DNA of 64,000 nt from the IMG/VR virus record IMGVR_UViG_3300013102_000030, positions 110,137 through 174,136 of that record. One strand, given 5' to 3'. Both the position numbers and the translations under genes were made by a program. This DNA comes from a virus. Of the stretch, positions 5,256 through 62,781 are shown in pieces. The number at the start of each line of letters is the position of its first letter. Position 1 is the stretch's first letter. The notes beneath the pieces were generated by a model that had not been told where the DNA came from, ran no database searches, and worked only from the letters and a program-made list of their open reading frames with translations.

Positions 5256-5398
5256 CACCAGACCAAGAGCAAGAAAAACAAATCAACTACACTCAATTTC
5301 GACTTGACGAACTGAAGGTACGTCGTGATAAGATCGATGAAGAGATTGCCTACGAGCAGCGAGTGCTAGACAAGCTGCTCGGAGGAGTGGTAGAATAG
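5252..5398 (+). CDS. small coiled-coil hypothetical protein
   Basis: GTGA overlap, 48 aa, fills gap. Confidence 0.55.
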   Translation: MTPDQEQEKQINYTQFRLDELKVRRDKIDEEIAYEQRVLDKLLGGVVE

Positions 5399-5435
5399 TG
5401 TAGTAAGTCCTCACCAGAGGAAACTACCACAGTAA

Positions 5436-6716
5436 GTGACAAACATGGCAACAACCGTAGTTCTGGACACATCCGTTCTCCTCTCCGCAGGAAGGACGGC
5501 ACTGTATTCCTTTGGTGAAAACAACGTAGTCCTCCCCCTCGTAGTTGTAAGTGAGCTTGAGAAAAAGCGCAATGACCCGGATCTTGGTCTCGCGTCTCGC
5601 TCCGTTCTACGGGAGCTTGATATCCTCCGGTCACAGGGGGATTTGGCTAATGGAGTCTCCCTAGGGGAGGACTACGGCACACTTCGTGTTGAAATCAACA
5701 ACACTCACAATGTACCACTCGCGGTTCAGAACCGTAAGACTAACGATGCCGAGATCATCACAGTAGCACACAACCTTGGACGATTCCAAACGGTTGTGCT
5801 GATCTCCAAGGATATTCCGATGAAGATCCTTGCCGACATCGTTGGTGTCGAGACAGCAGACTTTGTTCCGGCCAATATCTCCGGAGACTTCATCGATAAG
5901 ACTGAGACCTACTGGGTAACGGCGGAAGAGATCAACCAGATTCACGAACACGGAACTGTCCGTCTGACTCTGGATGTGCCCCGCAACGTTGGTGTCATCC
6001 TTCGCTCCGAAGAGAATCCCAAGAATACAGCCCTTGCCATTGCAGGACCGGAGTTCAAGTTCAACAAGGTTCAGTCCTTCAACGTTTCCGGACTTGAGTC
6101 CCGTTCCGCTGAGCAGGCTATCGCCATTGACTACCTGATGGATGATTCTGTCAAGATCGTCTCCCTTGGTGGCCGTGCCGGTACTGGTAAGACTACTCTA
6201 GCACTCGCTGCCGCCATTGAGCAACTACAACAGTACAAGAAGATCACGGTCTTCCGCTCCATGCACGCTGTAGGTGGAGAAGAGCTTGGATTCCTCCCCG
6301 GATCTGAGGCTGAGAAGATGGACCCTTGGACTGCTGCAATCTACGATAGTCTAAACTCATTCCTCACACCGGCCCAGATCAATGCTCTGAAGACCAAGCA
6401 GGCCATTGAGGTTCTCCCGCTGACACACATCCGTGGACGTACGCTGAACAACTTCATCATCATTGATGAGGCCCAGAACCTTGAGCGTGCCACCATCCTC
6501 ACAGCCCTCTCCCGTATGGGTAAGAACGCAAAGGCTGTCATGTCGTGGGATGTCTCCCAGCGAGACAACTTCCGCGTAGGCCGACACGATGGTGTCTATG
6601 AGGTCACCAGCCGCCTACTGGGTGAAAAGCTGTTCGCCCATACGTCCCTCCAGAAATCAGAGCGCTCACCGGCAGCAGAGCTTGTTTCCCGCAAGCTGGA
6701 TGATTTCGACATCTAA
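5436..6716 (+). CDS. phoH: PIN-domain PhoH family ATPase
   Basis: PIN VLDTSVLL..EL..ND..SKD; GRAGTGKT, LGFLPG, IRGRTL, IIDEAQN. Confidence 0.92.
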   Translation: MTNMATTVVLDTSVLLSAGRTALYSFGENNVVLPLVVVSELEKKRNDPDLGLASRSVLRELDILRSQGDLANGVSLGEDYGTLRVEINNTHNVPLAVQNRKTNDAEIITVAHNLGRFQTVVLISKDIPMKILADIVGVETADFVPANISGDFIDKTETYWVTAEEINQIHEHGTVRLTLDVPRNVGVILRSEENPKNTALAIAGPEFKFNKVQSFNVSGLESRSAEQAIAIDYLMDDSVKIVSLGGRAGTGKTTLALAAAIEQLQQYKKITVFRSMHAVGGEELGFLPGSEAEKMDPWTAAIYDSLNSFLTPAQINALKTKQAIEVLPLTHIRGRTLNNFIIIDEAQNLERATILTALSRMGKNAKAVMSWDVSQRDNFRVGRHDGVYEVTSRLLGEKLFAHTSLQKSERSPAAELVSRKLDDFDI

Positions 6717-23830: not shown

Positions 23831-24105
23831 TGATTCAACCCATGCTCCCGGCACTTCCACCAGCCATGAGCCACATCCCGGCCCGATCTCCTGAGTGGAA
23901 GAGCCACGAGAACATCGGCCATGCCAAGAACGCTGTCTCCCAGAAGGTACCACTGACCTCTTGGGGAAGCCGGAGGGCAGGCGCACTGTGTGACATGCAC
24001 ATCTTCGTCTTGGAAGATGGGCAGTATGTTCCCAAGTGGGTAATCCCTCAGGGAATGCAGTTCGCTGATCTTCCATGGAAGAACGAAAAGAAGCAACGCC
24101 CTTGA
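23827..24105 (+). CDS. hypothetical protein
   Basis: ATGA overlap; K.H...GHAKNA. Confidence 0.65.
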   Translation: MMIQPMLPALPPAMSHIPARSPEWKSHENIGHAKNAVSQKVPLTSWGSRRAGALCDMHIFVLEDGQYVPKWVIPQGMQFADLPWKNEKKQRP

Positions 24106-24130
24106 CTTTCCAGTCGTGGTCCTGTAAAAT
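24102..24130 (+). promoter_or_regulatory. sigA-type promoter of putative sRNA-1
   Basis: TTGACT-N17-TAAAAT with TG extension. Confidence 0.8.
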
Positions 24131-24136
24131 GGATCA

Positions 24137-24247
24137 TGTTGGTAGCCAGTAAATCCCCTCCTAGTTTACTGGCGAACGATCCGGTTTGGTACCCGGATCG
24201 GGGAAGTCCCGCAGTTGTAGCCTTTGCTCCTGCGGGACTTCTTTTTT
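24137..24247 (+). ncRNA. putative three-hairpin small RNA (sRNA-1) with anti-Shine-Dalgarno loop
   Basis: Stems 24145-53/24165-73, 24177-84/24193-200, 24203-14/24230-41 + T6; own promoter; no RBS-led ORF. Confidence 0.7.
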
Positions 24248-28181: not shown

Positions 28182-28243
28182 GGAAAGCGGTCTGGACGTT
28201 CTGGATCAGATGTTCGACGCACAGGAGTTCGGAGAGGCGGACT

Positions 28244-40293: not shown

Positions 40294-40570
40294 GATCGCA
40301 CAGCGACTGGTGGATCTGGGCCGGATCGATCCTGATGTCTATGACATCGAGAAGACCGGCATCCACCGGACTCGGGCAGGTCACTGGCAGCGCTCTCAAG
40401 GCGCATGGGTCTGGGATCTGGAACTGGTTCGCAAAGACGGAGGTATCGTGTATGATTCCTACGGGAGCCAGTACACGGCCACCGACTGCGCCAAAGCCAA
40501 GGCGTGGGATTTCTATTCAACAGGCATCGACCACGGGATCATTCCCATGAAGGAGGAACACAATGGCTGA
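40274..40570 (+). CDS. hypothetical protein
   Basis: RTRAGHWQRSQGAW.W. Confidence 0.65.
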   Translation: MSALGSKIAQRLVDLGRIDPDVYDIEKTGIHRTRAGHWQRSQGAWVWDLELVRKDGGIVYDSYGSQYTATDCAKAKAWDFYSTGIDHGIIPMKEEHNG

Positions 40571-58172: not shown

Positions 58173-58351
58173 AGGAGAAGACTGATGGACATTATGGATC
58201 TGATCAACCCTGCGCCTAAGAAGCGCACGATGATTGACTTCCTGCGTGAAGAGGCTGCGTTCAATGAGAAGCAGGCTGAAGCGAAGCGGAAGAAGGCAGA
58301 GGCTGCTGATGCTGTGGATGATCCGATGGATCTGATGGATCTGGGGGCACT

Positions 58352-58735
58352 GTGAAGCTAGCAGATCTGGTACCGGGAGAAGGCTGGAACCACATCAACA
58401 AATGGATTCGTGGGAATCTGGTCAAGAAGGCGGGGGACACTCAGTGGCGTGAGCCAACTGAGGTCGATTGGTACGTGGTGCACGGCAAGATGTGGCTGTA
58501 CCGAGCGCTCAAGGCTGGCCGGTTCAATGAGCGGAAGTGCACGTATCGACAGCCCAAGCGTCTGTGGTACGGAGACAAACTGCGGTCATCGTATGATCCC
58601 TTGTGGGGAGGCTTGGCTGTTCCCGGACATCTGTACGTCCGTCCCGCTCAGAGGACTTTCCAAGGGAAGAAGGTCCCGATGTCATGGATCGACTACCTGT
58701 ACAGTGGTCCTCGTGCCTACTGGCATGCGGCCTAA
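58352..58735 (+). CDS. Trp-rich hypothetical protein; RBS complementary to sRNA-2 loop
   Basis: GGGGG RBS + GTG. Confidence 0.6.
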   Translation: MKLADLVPGEGWNHINKWIRGNLVKKAGDTQWREPTEVDWYVVHGKMWLYRALKAGRFNERKCTYRQPKRLWYGDKLRSSYDPLWGGLAVPGHLYVRPAQRTFQGKKVPMSWIDYLYSGPRAYWHAA

Positions 58736-59665: not shown

Positions 59666-60030
59666 TGGAACATCCAGAAGCCAAGTTCGTACGTGGCGAT
59701 AGAGTACAGGTTACTGCGGAGTCCACTGTCGAACTGGAGCATCTGTTCCCTGAAGGCTTTGAGACTTATGAAGGAATTGTAAGGACCGTCCGACTTGACT
59801 ATTCGGGTGGATGGGGTACCCGTCCTAAAGTCTTCAAGGCTTGGGTTTATACCGTTAGCCTTGATCAGGACCCGTCAAAGGGTGGCCTGTACTTCCTTGA
59901 GACGGACTTGACACTTGTCCGCCCGTATGTTGTGGGCAAGCTCGATGAGATCGTGGAAGGGCTTGAGGCACGCATTGCCGACATCCGTCAGGCGCAGCAG
60001 GAAGAACTCAAGCGCCGAGGACTTGCCTAA
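59665..60030 (+). CDS. SH3-like protein
   Basis: KFVRGDRVQV..G.V..Y.V..E.DL. Confidence 0.65.
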   Translation: MEHPEAKFVRGDRVQVTAESTVELEHLFPEGFETYEGIVRTVRLDYSGGWGTRPKVFKAWVYTVSLDQDPSKGGLYFLETDLTLVRPYVVGKLDEIVEGLEARIADIRQAQQEELKRRGLA

Positions 60031-60114
60031 CAGTCCAGCGTATCAGAAGGATGTACACTTGTCAAGTTACAAAACTTTCTGAAAAGGGCCTGATCCGAAG
60101 ACCAGACCCTCTTC

Positions 60115-60354
60115 CTAGCCGACTACGGAGAGTCTGGCCTTAGCGTCAGCGACTCCAGCAGCATTCAGGACGGCTTCCTTGCACTCCACGCAGAGATCCC
60201 GTTCGAATACCAGCTTGTTGCCGGTGTTGCCTTCTATGTGCAGCCAGCCCTTCGGCAAGATGTAGTTGCCGTTCTTGATGCCGTCTGATAGTGGTGTTGT
60301 TTCGCTCTTATGGCACTGGTCACATTCCGAGTGCACTACTTGTTGTCTAGCCAT
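60115..60354 (-). CDS. small Zn-finger protein
   Basis: CDQC..LPKGW..DLCVEC. Confidence 0.7.
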   Translation of the reverse strand: MARQQVVHSECDQCHKSETTPLSDGIKNGNYILPKGWLHIEGNTGNKLVFERDLCVECKEAVLNAAGVADAKARLSVVG

Positions 60355-60383
60355 ACGCTCACGATATCAGCTATACTCAGGGC

Positions 60384-60447
60384 CAGGAAGTCCCTTTCGG
60401 GTCCAGCGGCTTAGCCCAGTTATCTATCCGGAGGGGACTTCCCCTTT
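60384..60447 (+). ncRNA. putative single long-hairpin RNA (sRNA-3)
   Basis: -10 TATACT 60372-77; 15-bp stem 60386-400/60428-442 with G:U pairs valid only on + strand. Confidence 0.5.
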
Positions 60448-60473
60448 GCCGTTGTGACCTGTACCATTAGCTC

Positions 60474-60578
60474 TGAGGGACCGGAGATCCCTCTGGCGGA
60501 CGATTAGCCTCTCCCGCCTACCTGAAGGGGTCATCCGGTGTCAATCCCCCAGATCCACCGGATGGCCTCTTCTCTTTT
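60474..60578 (+). ncRNA. putative three-hairpin small RNA (sRNA-2) with C-rich loops
   Basis: -10 TACCAT 60462-67; stems 60475-80/60488-93, 60495-99/60514-18, 60524-40/60556-72 + TCTTTT. Confidence 0.6.
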
Positions 60579-60662
60579 GCCTCTCCCCTGACATCTACCG
60601 TAGCACATCCCGCTGAAATGGGAACTGTGATATGATGAGCCAGCGTGTCTAGCCGCGCACCG

Positions 60663-60699
60663 AAAGGCCCCGAAACCCTTGCAGATTCCGGGGCCTTTC
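60663..60699 (-). terminator. terminator of DGQHR gene
   Basis: GAAAGGCCCCG...CGGGGCCTTTC. Confidence 0.7.
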
Positions 60700-60719
60700 T
60701 GGTGGGGTACCTCTATTGG

Positions 60720-62192
60720 CTACTCTTCGTTAGCCGACACGCCCGGTGCCTGATCAAGGTAGACCAGATCGTAGAGCATCTTGTAGAGGCCGGTCTGACC
60801 GGCGAAGCCAGCGCCTGCGGATGTCCACGGGTTGCCCTGACGCTTCTCCCAGTCCACCTGACCGAGCTTGGAGACCAGAGACGCTACCGCGCTCCAGAAC
60901 TCTTCCTCAGTCTTGGACTGTTCCAGTGCCGAAGACAGGATGTCCGCACCGAGCCGGGAGACGGAGGCAACGCCTGCCAGATCCTTGAGGCGGTACTTGA
61001 CCGGCTCTTCGATCTGTGCGCCAGTCTCGTCGGTGGTGATGCGGGGACGTTCCTGCCAAGCCGGAGCGCAAGCCCGAGCAACCAGTTCCCAGTACTTCTT
61101 GGCTGCGGACTCCAGAACGATGCCGCGACGGTTGAGCCGTCCGATCAGCTTCTCCTGAAGCATGTTGCCGGTAGCGCGTCGGAGACCTTCGTAGGTCACC
61201 GGCTTCTCCGGATCGCGTGCACCGGTCATGTTGACCTTGCCAGCCCACGGGCTGTTGCCGTCCTGTGCCAGAGCGAATGCCGCCTCACGGATGGTCTGTG
61301 CGTGAGTGGGTTCACCGTGTTCCATGTGAACCTTCGTGGCTTCGATCAAAGCCTTGGGAAGCTTGCGCTGGTTGGTGTTGATGTCATCAAACAGCGTGGC
61401 TTCGTCAGCGTACCGCAGGCCGTAGTAGAGCATGACCGGCACGTCCGGGTTGAACTTTGCCTTGGTTTCCCAAGCCCAGTACAGACCGCCCATGCGGTGC
61501 TGGCCGTCCACGATGGAGAAGACGGAAGGTCCGAACTCCTTGTGGATCTTGACGATGTCACCCTTGTTGAAGAGTTCGTTGAAGCGCTGCTGCTCCTTGG
61601 GGGAGTAGACGCGGACGGAGGCAATGATCGGAGTGATCAGGTGAGCGTGGGTGTGCTTCGTGTCACCCTTCTCCCCTTCCTCCTGAGCGAAGTACCGACC
61701 GATGGCGGGGAACCGTGCCGCGAGCGGATCGCGCTGGTAGCCGTGCTGGCGCGGTGAGCTTGACTGCTCATCGATGCTGTTGTACGTTGAGACGAATGCC
61801 AACGACTTCAGCGCGTCCGGAGTGAGGGTGGCGAGTGCCGTCTTGCCGGGAACGAACTCCACCTGAATCTTCATGTGGCGTTCCTTGGGTTCGATGGGCG
61901 TGACCACATCCTCCGAGTTGAGTTCGGCTGCGGCCTCAGCGTCTTCCGGCTTTCCTTCCGGATCGACCTCTTCTTCCGAGTTGTCCGAGAACATCGGGGT
62001 CACTGCCGGTGCGGTGGACTTGCGGGGCCGACGTGTGGTAGCTTTGGGTGTTGCCTTCTCCGGTGCCGATGCGGCTTCCGGTGCTGCGGTCTCTTCCGGA
62101 GTCAGGATCTCATCGATCTCTGCGTTCTTGGCCTTGGCCTCTGCGGAGAGGGTCTTTGCCGAAGTGCGAGCCTGAGTTGCGGTGCGTGCCAT
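60720..62192 (-). CDS. DGQHR-domain (DndB/ParB-like) protein with low-complexity N-terminus
   Basis: GYQR, IVDGQHR, EATLFDDINTNQRKL; GAAAGGAAG RBS. Confidence 0.85.
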   Translation of the reverse strand: MARTATQARTSAKTLSAEAKAKNAEIDEILTPEETAAPEAASAPEKATPKATTRRPRKSTAPAVTPMFSDNSEEEVDPEGKPEDAEAAAELNSEDVVTPIEPKERHMKIQVEFVPGKTALATLTPDALKSLAFVSTYNSIDEQSSSPRQHGYQRDPLAARFPAIGRYFAQEEGEKGDTKHTHAHLITPIIASVRVYSPKEQQRFNELFNKGDIVKIHKEFGPSVFSIVDGQHRMGGLYWAWETKAKFNPDVPVMLYYGLRYADEATLFDDINTNQRKLPKALIEATKVHMEHGEPTHAQTIREAAFALAQDGNSPWAGKVNMTGARDPEKPVTYEGLRRATGNMLQEKLIGRLNRRGIVLESAAKKYWELVARACAPAWQERPRITTDETGAQIEEPVKYRLKDLAGVASVSRLGADILSSALEQSKTEEEFWSAVASLVSKLGQVDWEKRQGNPWTSAGAGFAGQTGLYKMLYDLVYLDQAPGVSANEE

Positions 62193-62488: not shown

Positions 62489-62695
62489 ATGATCAAGCAG
62501 GGAGAGTTCGTCCGGATCACTGCCGGTCCCTATGAAGGGGATGAGGGAGTGGTTGAAGATGTACAGCCTGAATGCAGTGCGGTGCGGGTAGGTACCAGAG
62601 AAGGTAACTCCTACGCCATGCTGGATGACCTGAGGAAGATTCCGCCGCTGACTCCACAGCTAACCTCAGGGAAGCGTCCGTTACGGCGGAAGTGA
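62489..62695 (+). CDS. NusG-like KOW domain protein
   Basis: IKQGEFVRITAGPYEGDEGVVEDV. Confidence 0.75.
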   Translation: MIKQGEFVRITAGPYEGDEGVVEDVQPECSAVRVGTREGNSYAMLDDLRKIPPLTPQLTSGKRPLRRK

Positions 62696-62747
62696 TGCGG
62701 GACACAACTGAATAAGCGACAGGACTAACTGGGGGAGTCCTGACCGT

Positions 62748-62781
62748 GCCGTATCCCAGTAATGGGATGCGGCTTCTTTTT
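62748..62781 (+). terminator. intrinsic terminator
   Basis: GCCGTATCCCA-gtaa-TGGGATGCGGC-TTCTTTTT. Confidence 0.8.

Follow-up and report, generated by a model that had tools for sequence, protein, structure and literature searches.

Two minus-strand genes in the IMG/VR virus record IMGVR_UViG_3300013102_000030 are separated by a gap of 365 nucleotides (nt), and the question raised by this locus is whether the gap houses an RNA gene of its own and, if so, what the RNA acts on. The DNA analysed here (hereafter referred to as the window) is the final 64 kb of that 174,136-bp record, whose kin are the phages Mimi, Racecar, Talia1610 and Atuin of Arthrobacter globiformis (roughly 193 kb). An earlier reading of the window, referred to below as the original prediction, had placed in the gap a small RNA (sRNA) with three hairpins and had proposed that its last loop is addressed to the ribosome-binding site (RBS) of the gene starting at 58352. 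Our analyses indicate that the RNA gene is very probably real: the sequence at 60474–60578 of the plus strand has the properties of a non-coding RNA, about 105 nt long, that is transcribed on its own, and related phages carry homologues of it. The feature that unites these RNAs is a run of cytosines at the tip of the terminal hairpin, through which they may base-pair in trans, and the gene at 58352 is a doubtful candidate for their target.

We searched for relatives of the RNA by way of its convergent neighbour, which encodes a DGQHR/DndB-like protein. Scanning an alignment of this protein against IMG/VR and the JGI metagenomes gave 28 loci. A hairpin of 12–16 bp with a CCCCC tip recurred in 13 of these loci as well as in Mimi and Atuin, lying 100–230 nt past the stop codon of the DGQHR gene and on the strand opposite to it. 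The window follows the same rule of position, its RNA ending at 60578 and the DGQHR gene stopping at 60720 on the other strand. Altogether, homologues of the RNA occur in the same position and orientation at at least 15 other loci of related phage genomes and contigs, Mimi and Atuin included; Racecar and Talia1610 also carry the RNA, and the family as a whole belongs to Arthrobacter-type jumbo phages, relatives from soil metagenomes among them. At one locus, L003, an insertion of one or two genes (5300–6420) separates the RNA gene from the DGQHR gene, and the RNA is found displaced by 1.1 kb (6421–6549, E = 2e-7).

As an independent assessment of homology, we used a covariance model, R1, built from 10 relatives with the window left out. 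R1 matched the window at 60464–60577 (+) with 38.2 bits, the E value being 1.2e-8 for a search of 140 kb and 6.1e-8 for one of 690 kb, recovering the whole unit of about 115 nt, and a match of such strength appeared on the plus strand only. The stand-alone plus-strand sRNA of the original prediction is thus borne out, and the boundaries given for it agree almost exactly with those of the family. When used to search for paralogues, R1 revealed no second copy in the window; each unique genome region had one copy, accompanied by its antisense shadow. It gave no match at 24102–24247 either, where the original prediction had located another sRNA of similar architecture, said correctly to be unrelated in sequence. 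Among 151 actinomycete genomes of the host's order, R1 found no clear match, two matches at E = 0.007–0.009 per genome being attributable to chance, and on this evidence the RNA family appears to be phage-specific. The Mimi copy is too diverged to be detected by R1; its homology is deduced from its position, the shared 5′ motif GGAGCGAACG and the C-loop hairpin.

The pairing of the terminal stem was evaluated quantitatively in a plain alignment made with MAFFT from the full set of 16 sequences. Paired cells amounted to 93.7%, and both-side (compensatory) changes were seen in 8 of the 11 pairs. None of 500 column shuffles reached the observed values, and pairing fell to 40–62% in controls in which the partners had been slid. 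One pair is U-G in 10 of the 16 sequences and C-G in the rest, and 16 further wobble cells bring the total to 26, which settles the strand that is transcribed. All 16 sequences have the CCCCC tip, though the stems differ completely (for example, those of the window, Mimi and Atuin). CCCCC(A) is the only single-stranded element common to every member; it is carried on a weak apical helix of 2–5 bp atop the long stem, and the run is C6 in Atuin, L042 and L048 and C5 otherwise. Five relatives (L045, L047, L048, L051 and L052) also have a conserved CAUUGGGG(A) 8–10 nt 5′ of the terminal stem, an element seen neither in the window nor in the L004 group. Being complementary to the apical CCCCAA, it could hide the C loop or pair with it in a pseudoknot.

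The remainder of the unit is conserved less strictly. Its parts follow one another in the order of −10 element, 5′ hairpin with the loop GAGCGAACGG, middle hairpin (in most members), terminal C-loop hairpin and, usually, U-rich tail. The middle hairpin consists of a 6-bp covarying stem (for example, GGAGGG/CCCUCC, GGUGGG/CCCACC and GGGAGG/CCUCCC, with compensatory changes in pairs 40/55 and 41/54) and the loop UCGGAA. The window RNA is a divergent member, which keeps three hairpins of the right size and the C loop and differs in the loops of hairpins 1 and 2; it has neither GAGCGAACGG nor UCGGAA, and the loop of its hairpin 2 reads ACGAUUAGCCUCUC. The middle hairpin is missing from Mimi, Atuin, L042 and L057, too. 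Because the GAGCGAACGG and UCGGAA loops do not occur in all members, these motifs define a subgroup rather than the family. U-rich tails like that of the window are found in L004, L039 and L053, and there is none in L042 and L057.

The window RNA was then considered by itself. Its minimum free energy is −50.8 kcal/mol (z = −3.35), and the fold contains the three hairpins of the original prediction, followed by CTTCTCTTTT and a T-rich end at 60578 (Table 1). The apical region of the terminal hairpin, P3, consists of 15 nt, UCAAUCCCCCAGAUC (60541–60555), and exposes CCCCC. P3 has the make-up of an intrinsic terminator, with a G+C-rich stem (60527–60569) before TTCTCTTTT; it is unlisted in a simple terminator scan, as the scan admits loops of 3–8 nt only. 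The G-U and U-G pairs of the last stem turn into A-C mismatches on the minus strand, the fold of which bulges there. The plus strand is, therefore, the RNA strand, and the argument from G:U pairs in the original prediction holds when both strands are folded. No plus-strand open reading frame (ORF) of 30 amino acids (aa) or more was found at the RNA locus, and ARAGORN found no tRNA or tmRNA in the window. Nothing lies downstream of the RNA on the plus strand, so it cannot be a leader. The promoter claim survives in part: TACCAT, a TG and the lack of a good −35 are as described, but the TG touches the hexamer without a spacer base and does not make a canonical TGnTAnnnT. In a check for SigA/sigma-70-type elements, TANNNT (TACCAT) and the abutting TG were all that could be found, a −35 being unrecognisable at a spacing of 16–18 nt.

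Table 1. Positions of the RNA, its candidate partners and its neighbours in the window
Feature	Positions	Strand	Remarks
Putative promoter −10, TG + TACCAT	60460–60467	+	TACCAT 60462–60467, TG 60460–60461; no recognisable −35
Hairpin 1, 6 bp, loop CCGGAGA	60475–60493	+	From the fold; at the place of the family 5′ hairpin, without the loop motif GAGCGAACGG
Hairpin 2, GGCGG/CCGCC, loop with GCCUCUCC	60495–60518	+	From the fold; at the place of the family middle hairpin
Terminal hairpin P3	60524–60572	+	Stem of about 14–17 bp, two wobble pairs
U-rich tail TTCTCTTTT	60570–60578	+	Probable intrinsic termination point
Candidate target TGGATCTGGGGG	58336–58347	+	4 nt before GTG 58352, inside the end of ORF 58185–58355; not conserved
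79-aa Cys-rich (zinc-ribbon-like) gene	60115–60354	−	Divergent from the RNA locus; phrog_22311; homologues in L004
DGQHR/DndB-like ('ParB-like nuclease') gene, 490 aa	60720–62192	−	Pfam PF14072, E = 2.4e-10; convergent neighbour, synteny anchor of the RNA family
DGQHR gene terminator hairpin	60660–60700	−	Perfect stem, usable in both directions; weak terminator-like Rfam matches
Candidate partner or sponge, 7-bp hairpin, loop AACUGGGGG	62720–62742	+	3′ untranslated region (UTR) of a KOW-like gene

Relatives have near-consensus promoters at the corresponding place. The L004 group has the −10 element TGCTAGAAT together with the −35 element TTGTGA (TTGTGA-N17-(TGC)TAGAAT), and Mimi has TTGACA-N17-AATAAT directly upstream of its RNA; Atuin, L057, L042 and the window have TGTAnnnT at the same place of the alignment. 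In L004 (5470–5510, minus strand of the locus), and also in L039, L053, L049 and L050, a perfect palindrome, AGGTGA-C-TCACCT, fills the spacer between TTGTGA and TAGAAT. Lying in a divergent region common to the sRNA and the zinc-ribbon gene, this palindrome looks like an operator. The RNA is found twice in the records of Mimi (1727 and 174387) and Atuin (1515 and 178403; record coordinates), because its gene is inside the direct terminal repeat, about 19.9 kb long in Mimi and about 17.3 kb long in Atuin. In T5 and SPO1, the host-takeover genes that are expressed first lie in the terminal repeats, and, by analogy, the terminal-repeat region of Mimi and Atuin probably holds early genes read from host-type promoters. 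In Atuin (L005), an annotated minus-strand coding sequence, 'gene 3' (1304–1504), overlaps the RNA gene (1431–1538, +). Its translation is a peptide of low complexity that bears no relation to the zinc-ribbon protein, and gene 3 is probably a spurious call; the annotation of Atuin is to be corrected at this point, where a gene has been drawn across the RNA on the wrong strand.

The RNA had no counterpart in Rfam. Searches with the whole window at gathering thresholds and, with E values of up to 10 allowed, with the loci of the window, Atuin and L004 returned no family match. The best whole-length near-miss, BjrC80 (RF02354; 17.6 bits against a gathering threshold of 80, E = 0.31), and the ctRNA models (16–18 bits) are at chance level. 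The 6C model (RF01066) did not match the RNA at any of the three loci at E up to 10, and grazed only the neighbouring terminator with 17.9 bits against a threshold of 47. A blastn search with the intergenic sequence as the query and 50,697 phage records as the database yielded nothing useful, as the family is too divergent for DNA searches. A loose motif scan of IMG/VR and 185,579 genomes (GAGCGAACGGC, a gap of 30–60 nt, YCCCCCA) gave mostly chance matches, the real ones being three phage contigs already known. A literature search found no description of this RNA or of any sRNA of Mimi/Atuin-type phages. The RNA family is previously undescribed, and its way of working is, as far as can be inferred, of a known kind.

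What, then, does the RNA do? The last loop is its most conserved single-stranded part and is C-rich, and the data support the view that it has the form expected of a seed for G-rich RBSs in Actinobacteria. By analogy with the 6C RNA (see below), we put the likelihood that it is a base-pairing RNA, produced early in infection, which acts in trans with the C loop as its seed, at about even. According to this model, the long, G+C-rich terminal hairpin would double as the terminator and show CCCCC(A) in a small loop at its tip. The C loop would seed pairing, without a chaperone, with single-stranded G-rich sites, typically Shine-Dalgarno sequences of the GGGGG type, and the pairing would block translation or alter mRNA stability. 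Expression would be early, from host-type promoters in the terminal-repeat region. All members keep the loop core, whereas the phage genes around it differ, and a conserved target is therefore more likely to be a host mRNA or a few G5 sites than ORF 58352.

Runs of five or more G number 84 on both strands of the 174-kb record, and 14 of the 84 lie 3–12 nt before a long ORF. Base-composition arithmetic, a rough reckoning without a formal test, predicts several hundred such runs. This scarcity of G5 echoes the depletion of G runs reported in mycobacteria (PMC6486639). Since G5 runs are rare in the phage, a C5 seed would be selective. The best phage-encoded candidate targets in the window are the RBS of 58352, discussed below, and a G5-loop hairpin at 62720–62742. 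The latter belongs to a module (62706–62780) that comes after the KOW-like gene 62489–62695 and consists of the box ACAACTGAATAA, the hairpin and a terminator. The stretches CUGGGGGA and CTGGGGGA of the hairpin are complementary to UCCCCCAG of the sRNA loop, with a duplex energy of −18.7 kcal/mol. The module of box, G5-loop hairpin and terminator is also present in five relatives (L042, L046, L047, L050 and L052) and absent from the L004 group; the core complementarity to the C loop is 6–8 nt, and roughly every second relative with the module has fitting flanks. G5-containing hairpin loops, however, number about 15 per genome, and some of them reach 8–9 nt of complementarity by chance; genome-wide, G5 sites in hairpin loops provide complements of 7–9 nt in every genome, at about the chance level. 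We thus regard the hairpin in the KOW 3′ UTR as a lead, not a finding.

Several observations weigh against a trans-acting C-loop RNA. The promoter of the window copy is weak on paper. Across the four complete genomes, G5 sites close to start codons do not fall in homologous genes, and no conserved target was found. Complements of the other conserved loops, GAGCGAACGG and UCGGAA, occur in the phage genomes at background level, and none is conserved; because these loops are conserved without a complement and are absent from the window copy, part of the function of the family may not rely on C-loop pairing. Moreover, terminator hairpins with C-rich loops are common among Gram-positive bacteria of high GC content, and a role in termination alone has been proposed for them as well.

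The alternative that fares best is an RNA that binds a protein or serves as a decoy, and we rate it as possible though unlikely. Here, mRNA pairing would not be primary; the conserved loops would be recognition sites for a protein of the phage or the host, or the RNA would mimic hairpin 2 of the host 6C RNA and compete for its partners. Three conserved loop motifs on covarying stems, with no conserved complements in the phage genomes, speak for such a function, and the terminal hairpin resembles 6C hairpin 2 in stem length, in the loop UCCCCC(C)AA and in the tail. The RNA is also strictly linked to the DGQHR/ParB-like gene, but this linkage may simply reflect the collinearity of the genomes, and no candidate protein was identified. 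Furthermore, the window copy has lost two of the three motifs and yet keeps the C loop, which suggests that the C loop is the core of the function.

The original prediction proposed that the loop is specifically addressed to the initiation region of the gene at 58352, its 12-nt pairing with the GGGGG Shine-Dalgarno sequence repressing or timing translation. We consider this rather improbable, even though the complementarity itself is exact. CCCCCAGATCCA (60546–60557), comprising 10 nt of the loop and 2 nt of the stem, has one other occurrence in the window, as its reverse complement at 58336–58347, which ends 4 nt before GTG 58352. The length of the match says nothing by itself, because 82% of random 117-nt segments of the genome have a reverse-complement match of at least 12 nt elsewhere in the genome. 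The RNA element itself has a 13-nt match elsewhere, and another 12-nt match of this loop region falls within a gene near 40312. We therefore applied a stricter test, in which the match must contain the G run and be no more than 24 nt away from a candidate start codon. The control set consisted of 58 unrelated pairs of loop and genome (16 family loops against the four complete genomes, after exclusion of own and near-own pairs), and the longest matches were 7–10 nt in 57 of these pairs and 12 nt in the remaining one. The chance level of the match at 58352 is thus roughly 0.02–0.05 before correction for the several loops and RNAs inspected; the match is unusual, but it is not compelling and may be due to chance. 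In its favour, G5 runs are rare, and it gives the best non-self duplex in the 174-kb genome for a 17-nt loop query (−25.4 kcal/mol, as compared with −23.0 kcal/mol for the next).

The comparison with relatives argues against this target. ORF 58352 has no homologue in the three complete relatives, L004 (99% complete), Mimi and Atuin, all of which keep the RNA with its hairpin and CCCCC, and it is an ORFan with no Pfam or PHROG match. The loops of L004, Mimi and Atuin match start regions of their own genomes over 8, 8 and 9 nt, respectively, which is the background seen for unrelated pairs. The co-variation of loop and target RBS, one of the checks named in the original prediction, is thus not found in relatives, and the outcome comes close to the refuting case named there, of hairpins retained and complementarity to the orthologous RBS lost. 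The variable part of the 12-mer (GAUCCA) offers no covariation with a partner. In addition, most bases of the target are paired in the predicted fold of the mRNA. Taken together, these results do not sustain the assignment of the loop to gene 58352, and they caution that a lone 12-nt match between a loop and an RBS in a 174-kb genome is not evidence of targeting. The site lies in a short tandem repeat (58300–58347, with two copies of GATGGATCT), from which the last part of ORF 58185–58355 is translated as ...DPMDLMDLGAL. The stop codon of this ORF overlaps GTG 58352 as GTGA, which suggests translational coupling. The shorter match claimed for the middle loop, GGAGAGGC, does occur at 28231, but it is at chance level, as about two occurrences of an 8-mer are expected in 2 × 64 kb; in most relatives, the CCCUCC that corresponds to the middle loop of the window forms the 3′ side of a stem that covaries, and no loop.

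A cis-antisense function, in which mRNA of the zinc-ribbon gene would start from a minus-strand promoter beyond the RNA gene (for example, TGCTACGGT at 60605–60597) and carry a long 5′ UTR fully complementary to the sRNA, which would control this mRNA, is highly improbable. The terminator of the DGQHR gene implies that the zinc-ribbon gene needs a promoter within 60355–60660; a motif resembling TGnTAnnnT is present on the minus strand, and zinc-ribbon homologues adjoin the RNA in most relatives. Mimi, Racecar and Talia1610, however, keep the RNA without a zinc-ribbon gene there, their genes 1–4 being on the RNA strand, and in the L004 group the 3′ end of the RNA abuts the DGQHR terminator, leaving no space for an upstream minus-strand promoter. 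Moreover, perfect antisense pairing needs no conserved loop sequence. Least probable of all is a mere terminator or insulator without a trans function, its promoter-like motifs being incidental: the position between convergent transcription units, the terminator-like last hairpin with its T tract and the termination role proposed for C-rich-loop hairpins fit, but such an element would have no need of an invariant loop or of the two other hairpin loops conserved upstream. In Atuin, L057, L051 and the window, there is already a separate terminator-like hairpin before the −10 element, strong promoters lie directly 5′ of the structure in relatives, and the covariance model recovers the entire unit.

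The surroundings of the RNA gene contain further structures. A long hairpin with a 10-bp base, GGAAGUCCCU...GGGGACUUCC, then CCTTTG (60384–60447), lies directly 5′ of the −10 element of the sRNA and has a U-G wobble on the plus strand. Terminator hairpins of the GGAAGACCC type occupy the equivalent place upstream of the RNA in Atuin, L057, L051 and L042, and since a like hairpin is kept there, that at 60384–60447 may be an upstream terminator or a −35 module rather than a third sRNA. On the far side of the zinc-ribbon gene, in the stretch 60068–60108, the box TTACAAAACTTT comes after a plus-strand gene ending at 60030. The hairpin beside the box (60085–60108) has the loop UUCG, and its wobble pairs are those of the minus strand; because it is fully paired on that strand only, it serves as the terminator of the 79-aa gene.

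Regulatory RNAs of actinobacterial phages are almost unexplored, and the gain from this locus is a family supported by covariation, with a C5 candidate seed. Cultured members, namely Mimi, Atuin, Racecar and Talia1610 on Arthrobacter globiformis, are available for deletion and mutation.

How does the RNA compare with known systems? Short phage-encoded base-pairing transcripts with their own promoter and intrinsic terminator include lambda OOP, P22 sar, DicF, IpeX and the AgvB and AsxR RNAs of enterohaemorrhagic Escherichia coli (EHEC). These enterobacterial RNAs are of temperate-phage or prophage origin and mostly Hfq-dependent or cis-antisense, whereas the present RNA belongs to actinobacterial phages of roughly 175–195 kb and has no antisense partner conserved across the family. 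In Firmicutes, RsaE/RoxS and the RNAIII-type loops expose apical C-rich sequences that pair with Shine-Dalgarno regions. The apical C-rich loop is the likeness here, an analogy only; these sRNAs differ from the phage RNA in host phylum and in having several UCCC or CCCC motifs, and share no sequence or Rfam similarity with it. The terminal hairpin of the BjrC80 model has a uCCCCCAg loop too, in a family that is alphaproteobacterial.

The closest parallel is the 6C RNA (RF01066; B11 in mycobacteria, scr3558 in Streptomyces), an sRNA of about 75–110 nt that is likewise of actinobacterial context. G-rich RBSs, of which AGGGGGG of panD is an example, are paired by its C-rich loops without the help of a chaperone, and growth stops when 6C is overexpressed (PMC6486639). 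The second hairpin of 6C from the host's order has a G+C-rich stem of 13–15 bp, in some cases the loop UCCCCC(C)AA, and a short pyrimidine tail. The two RNAs differ in that 6C has two C-rich loops of at least six C each (C6–C11 in host 6C), whereas the phage RNA has a single loop of C5 (C6 in Atuin, L042 and L048); no relationship exists in the 5′ two thirds, with GAGCGAACGG/UCGGAA or, in the window, CCGGAGA/GCCUCUCC as loops in the phage RNA, which, moreover, is phage-borne. Genuine 6C genes in genomes of the host's order score 47–76 bits with the 6C model, for which the gathering threshold is 47. It is conceivable, albeit improbable, that the phage RNA, encoded in the terminal-repeat region that is probably the first to enter the cell, is half a 6C, copying the C-loop hairpin of this global regulator of the host for an early shutdown of host mRNAs with G-rich RBSs (dnaB and panD being the mycobacterial examples), with the hairpin at 62720–62742 as a sponge or timer. 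If the RNA does act in a 6C-like manner, it would be the first example known to us of a phage borrowing from Gram-positive bacteria of high GC content the logic of C loop and G-rich RBS for host takeover.

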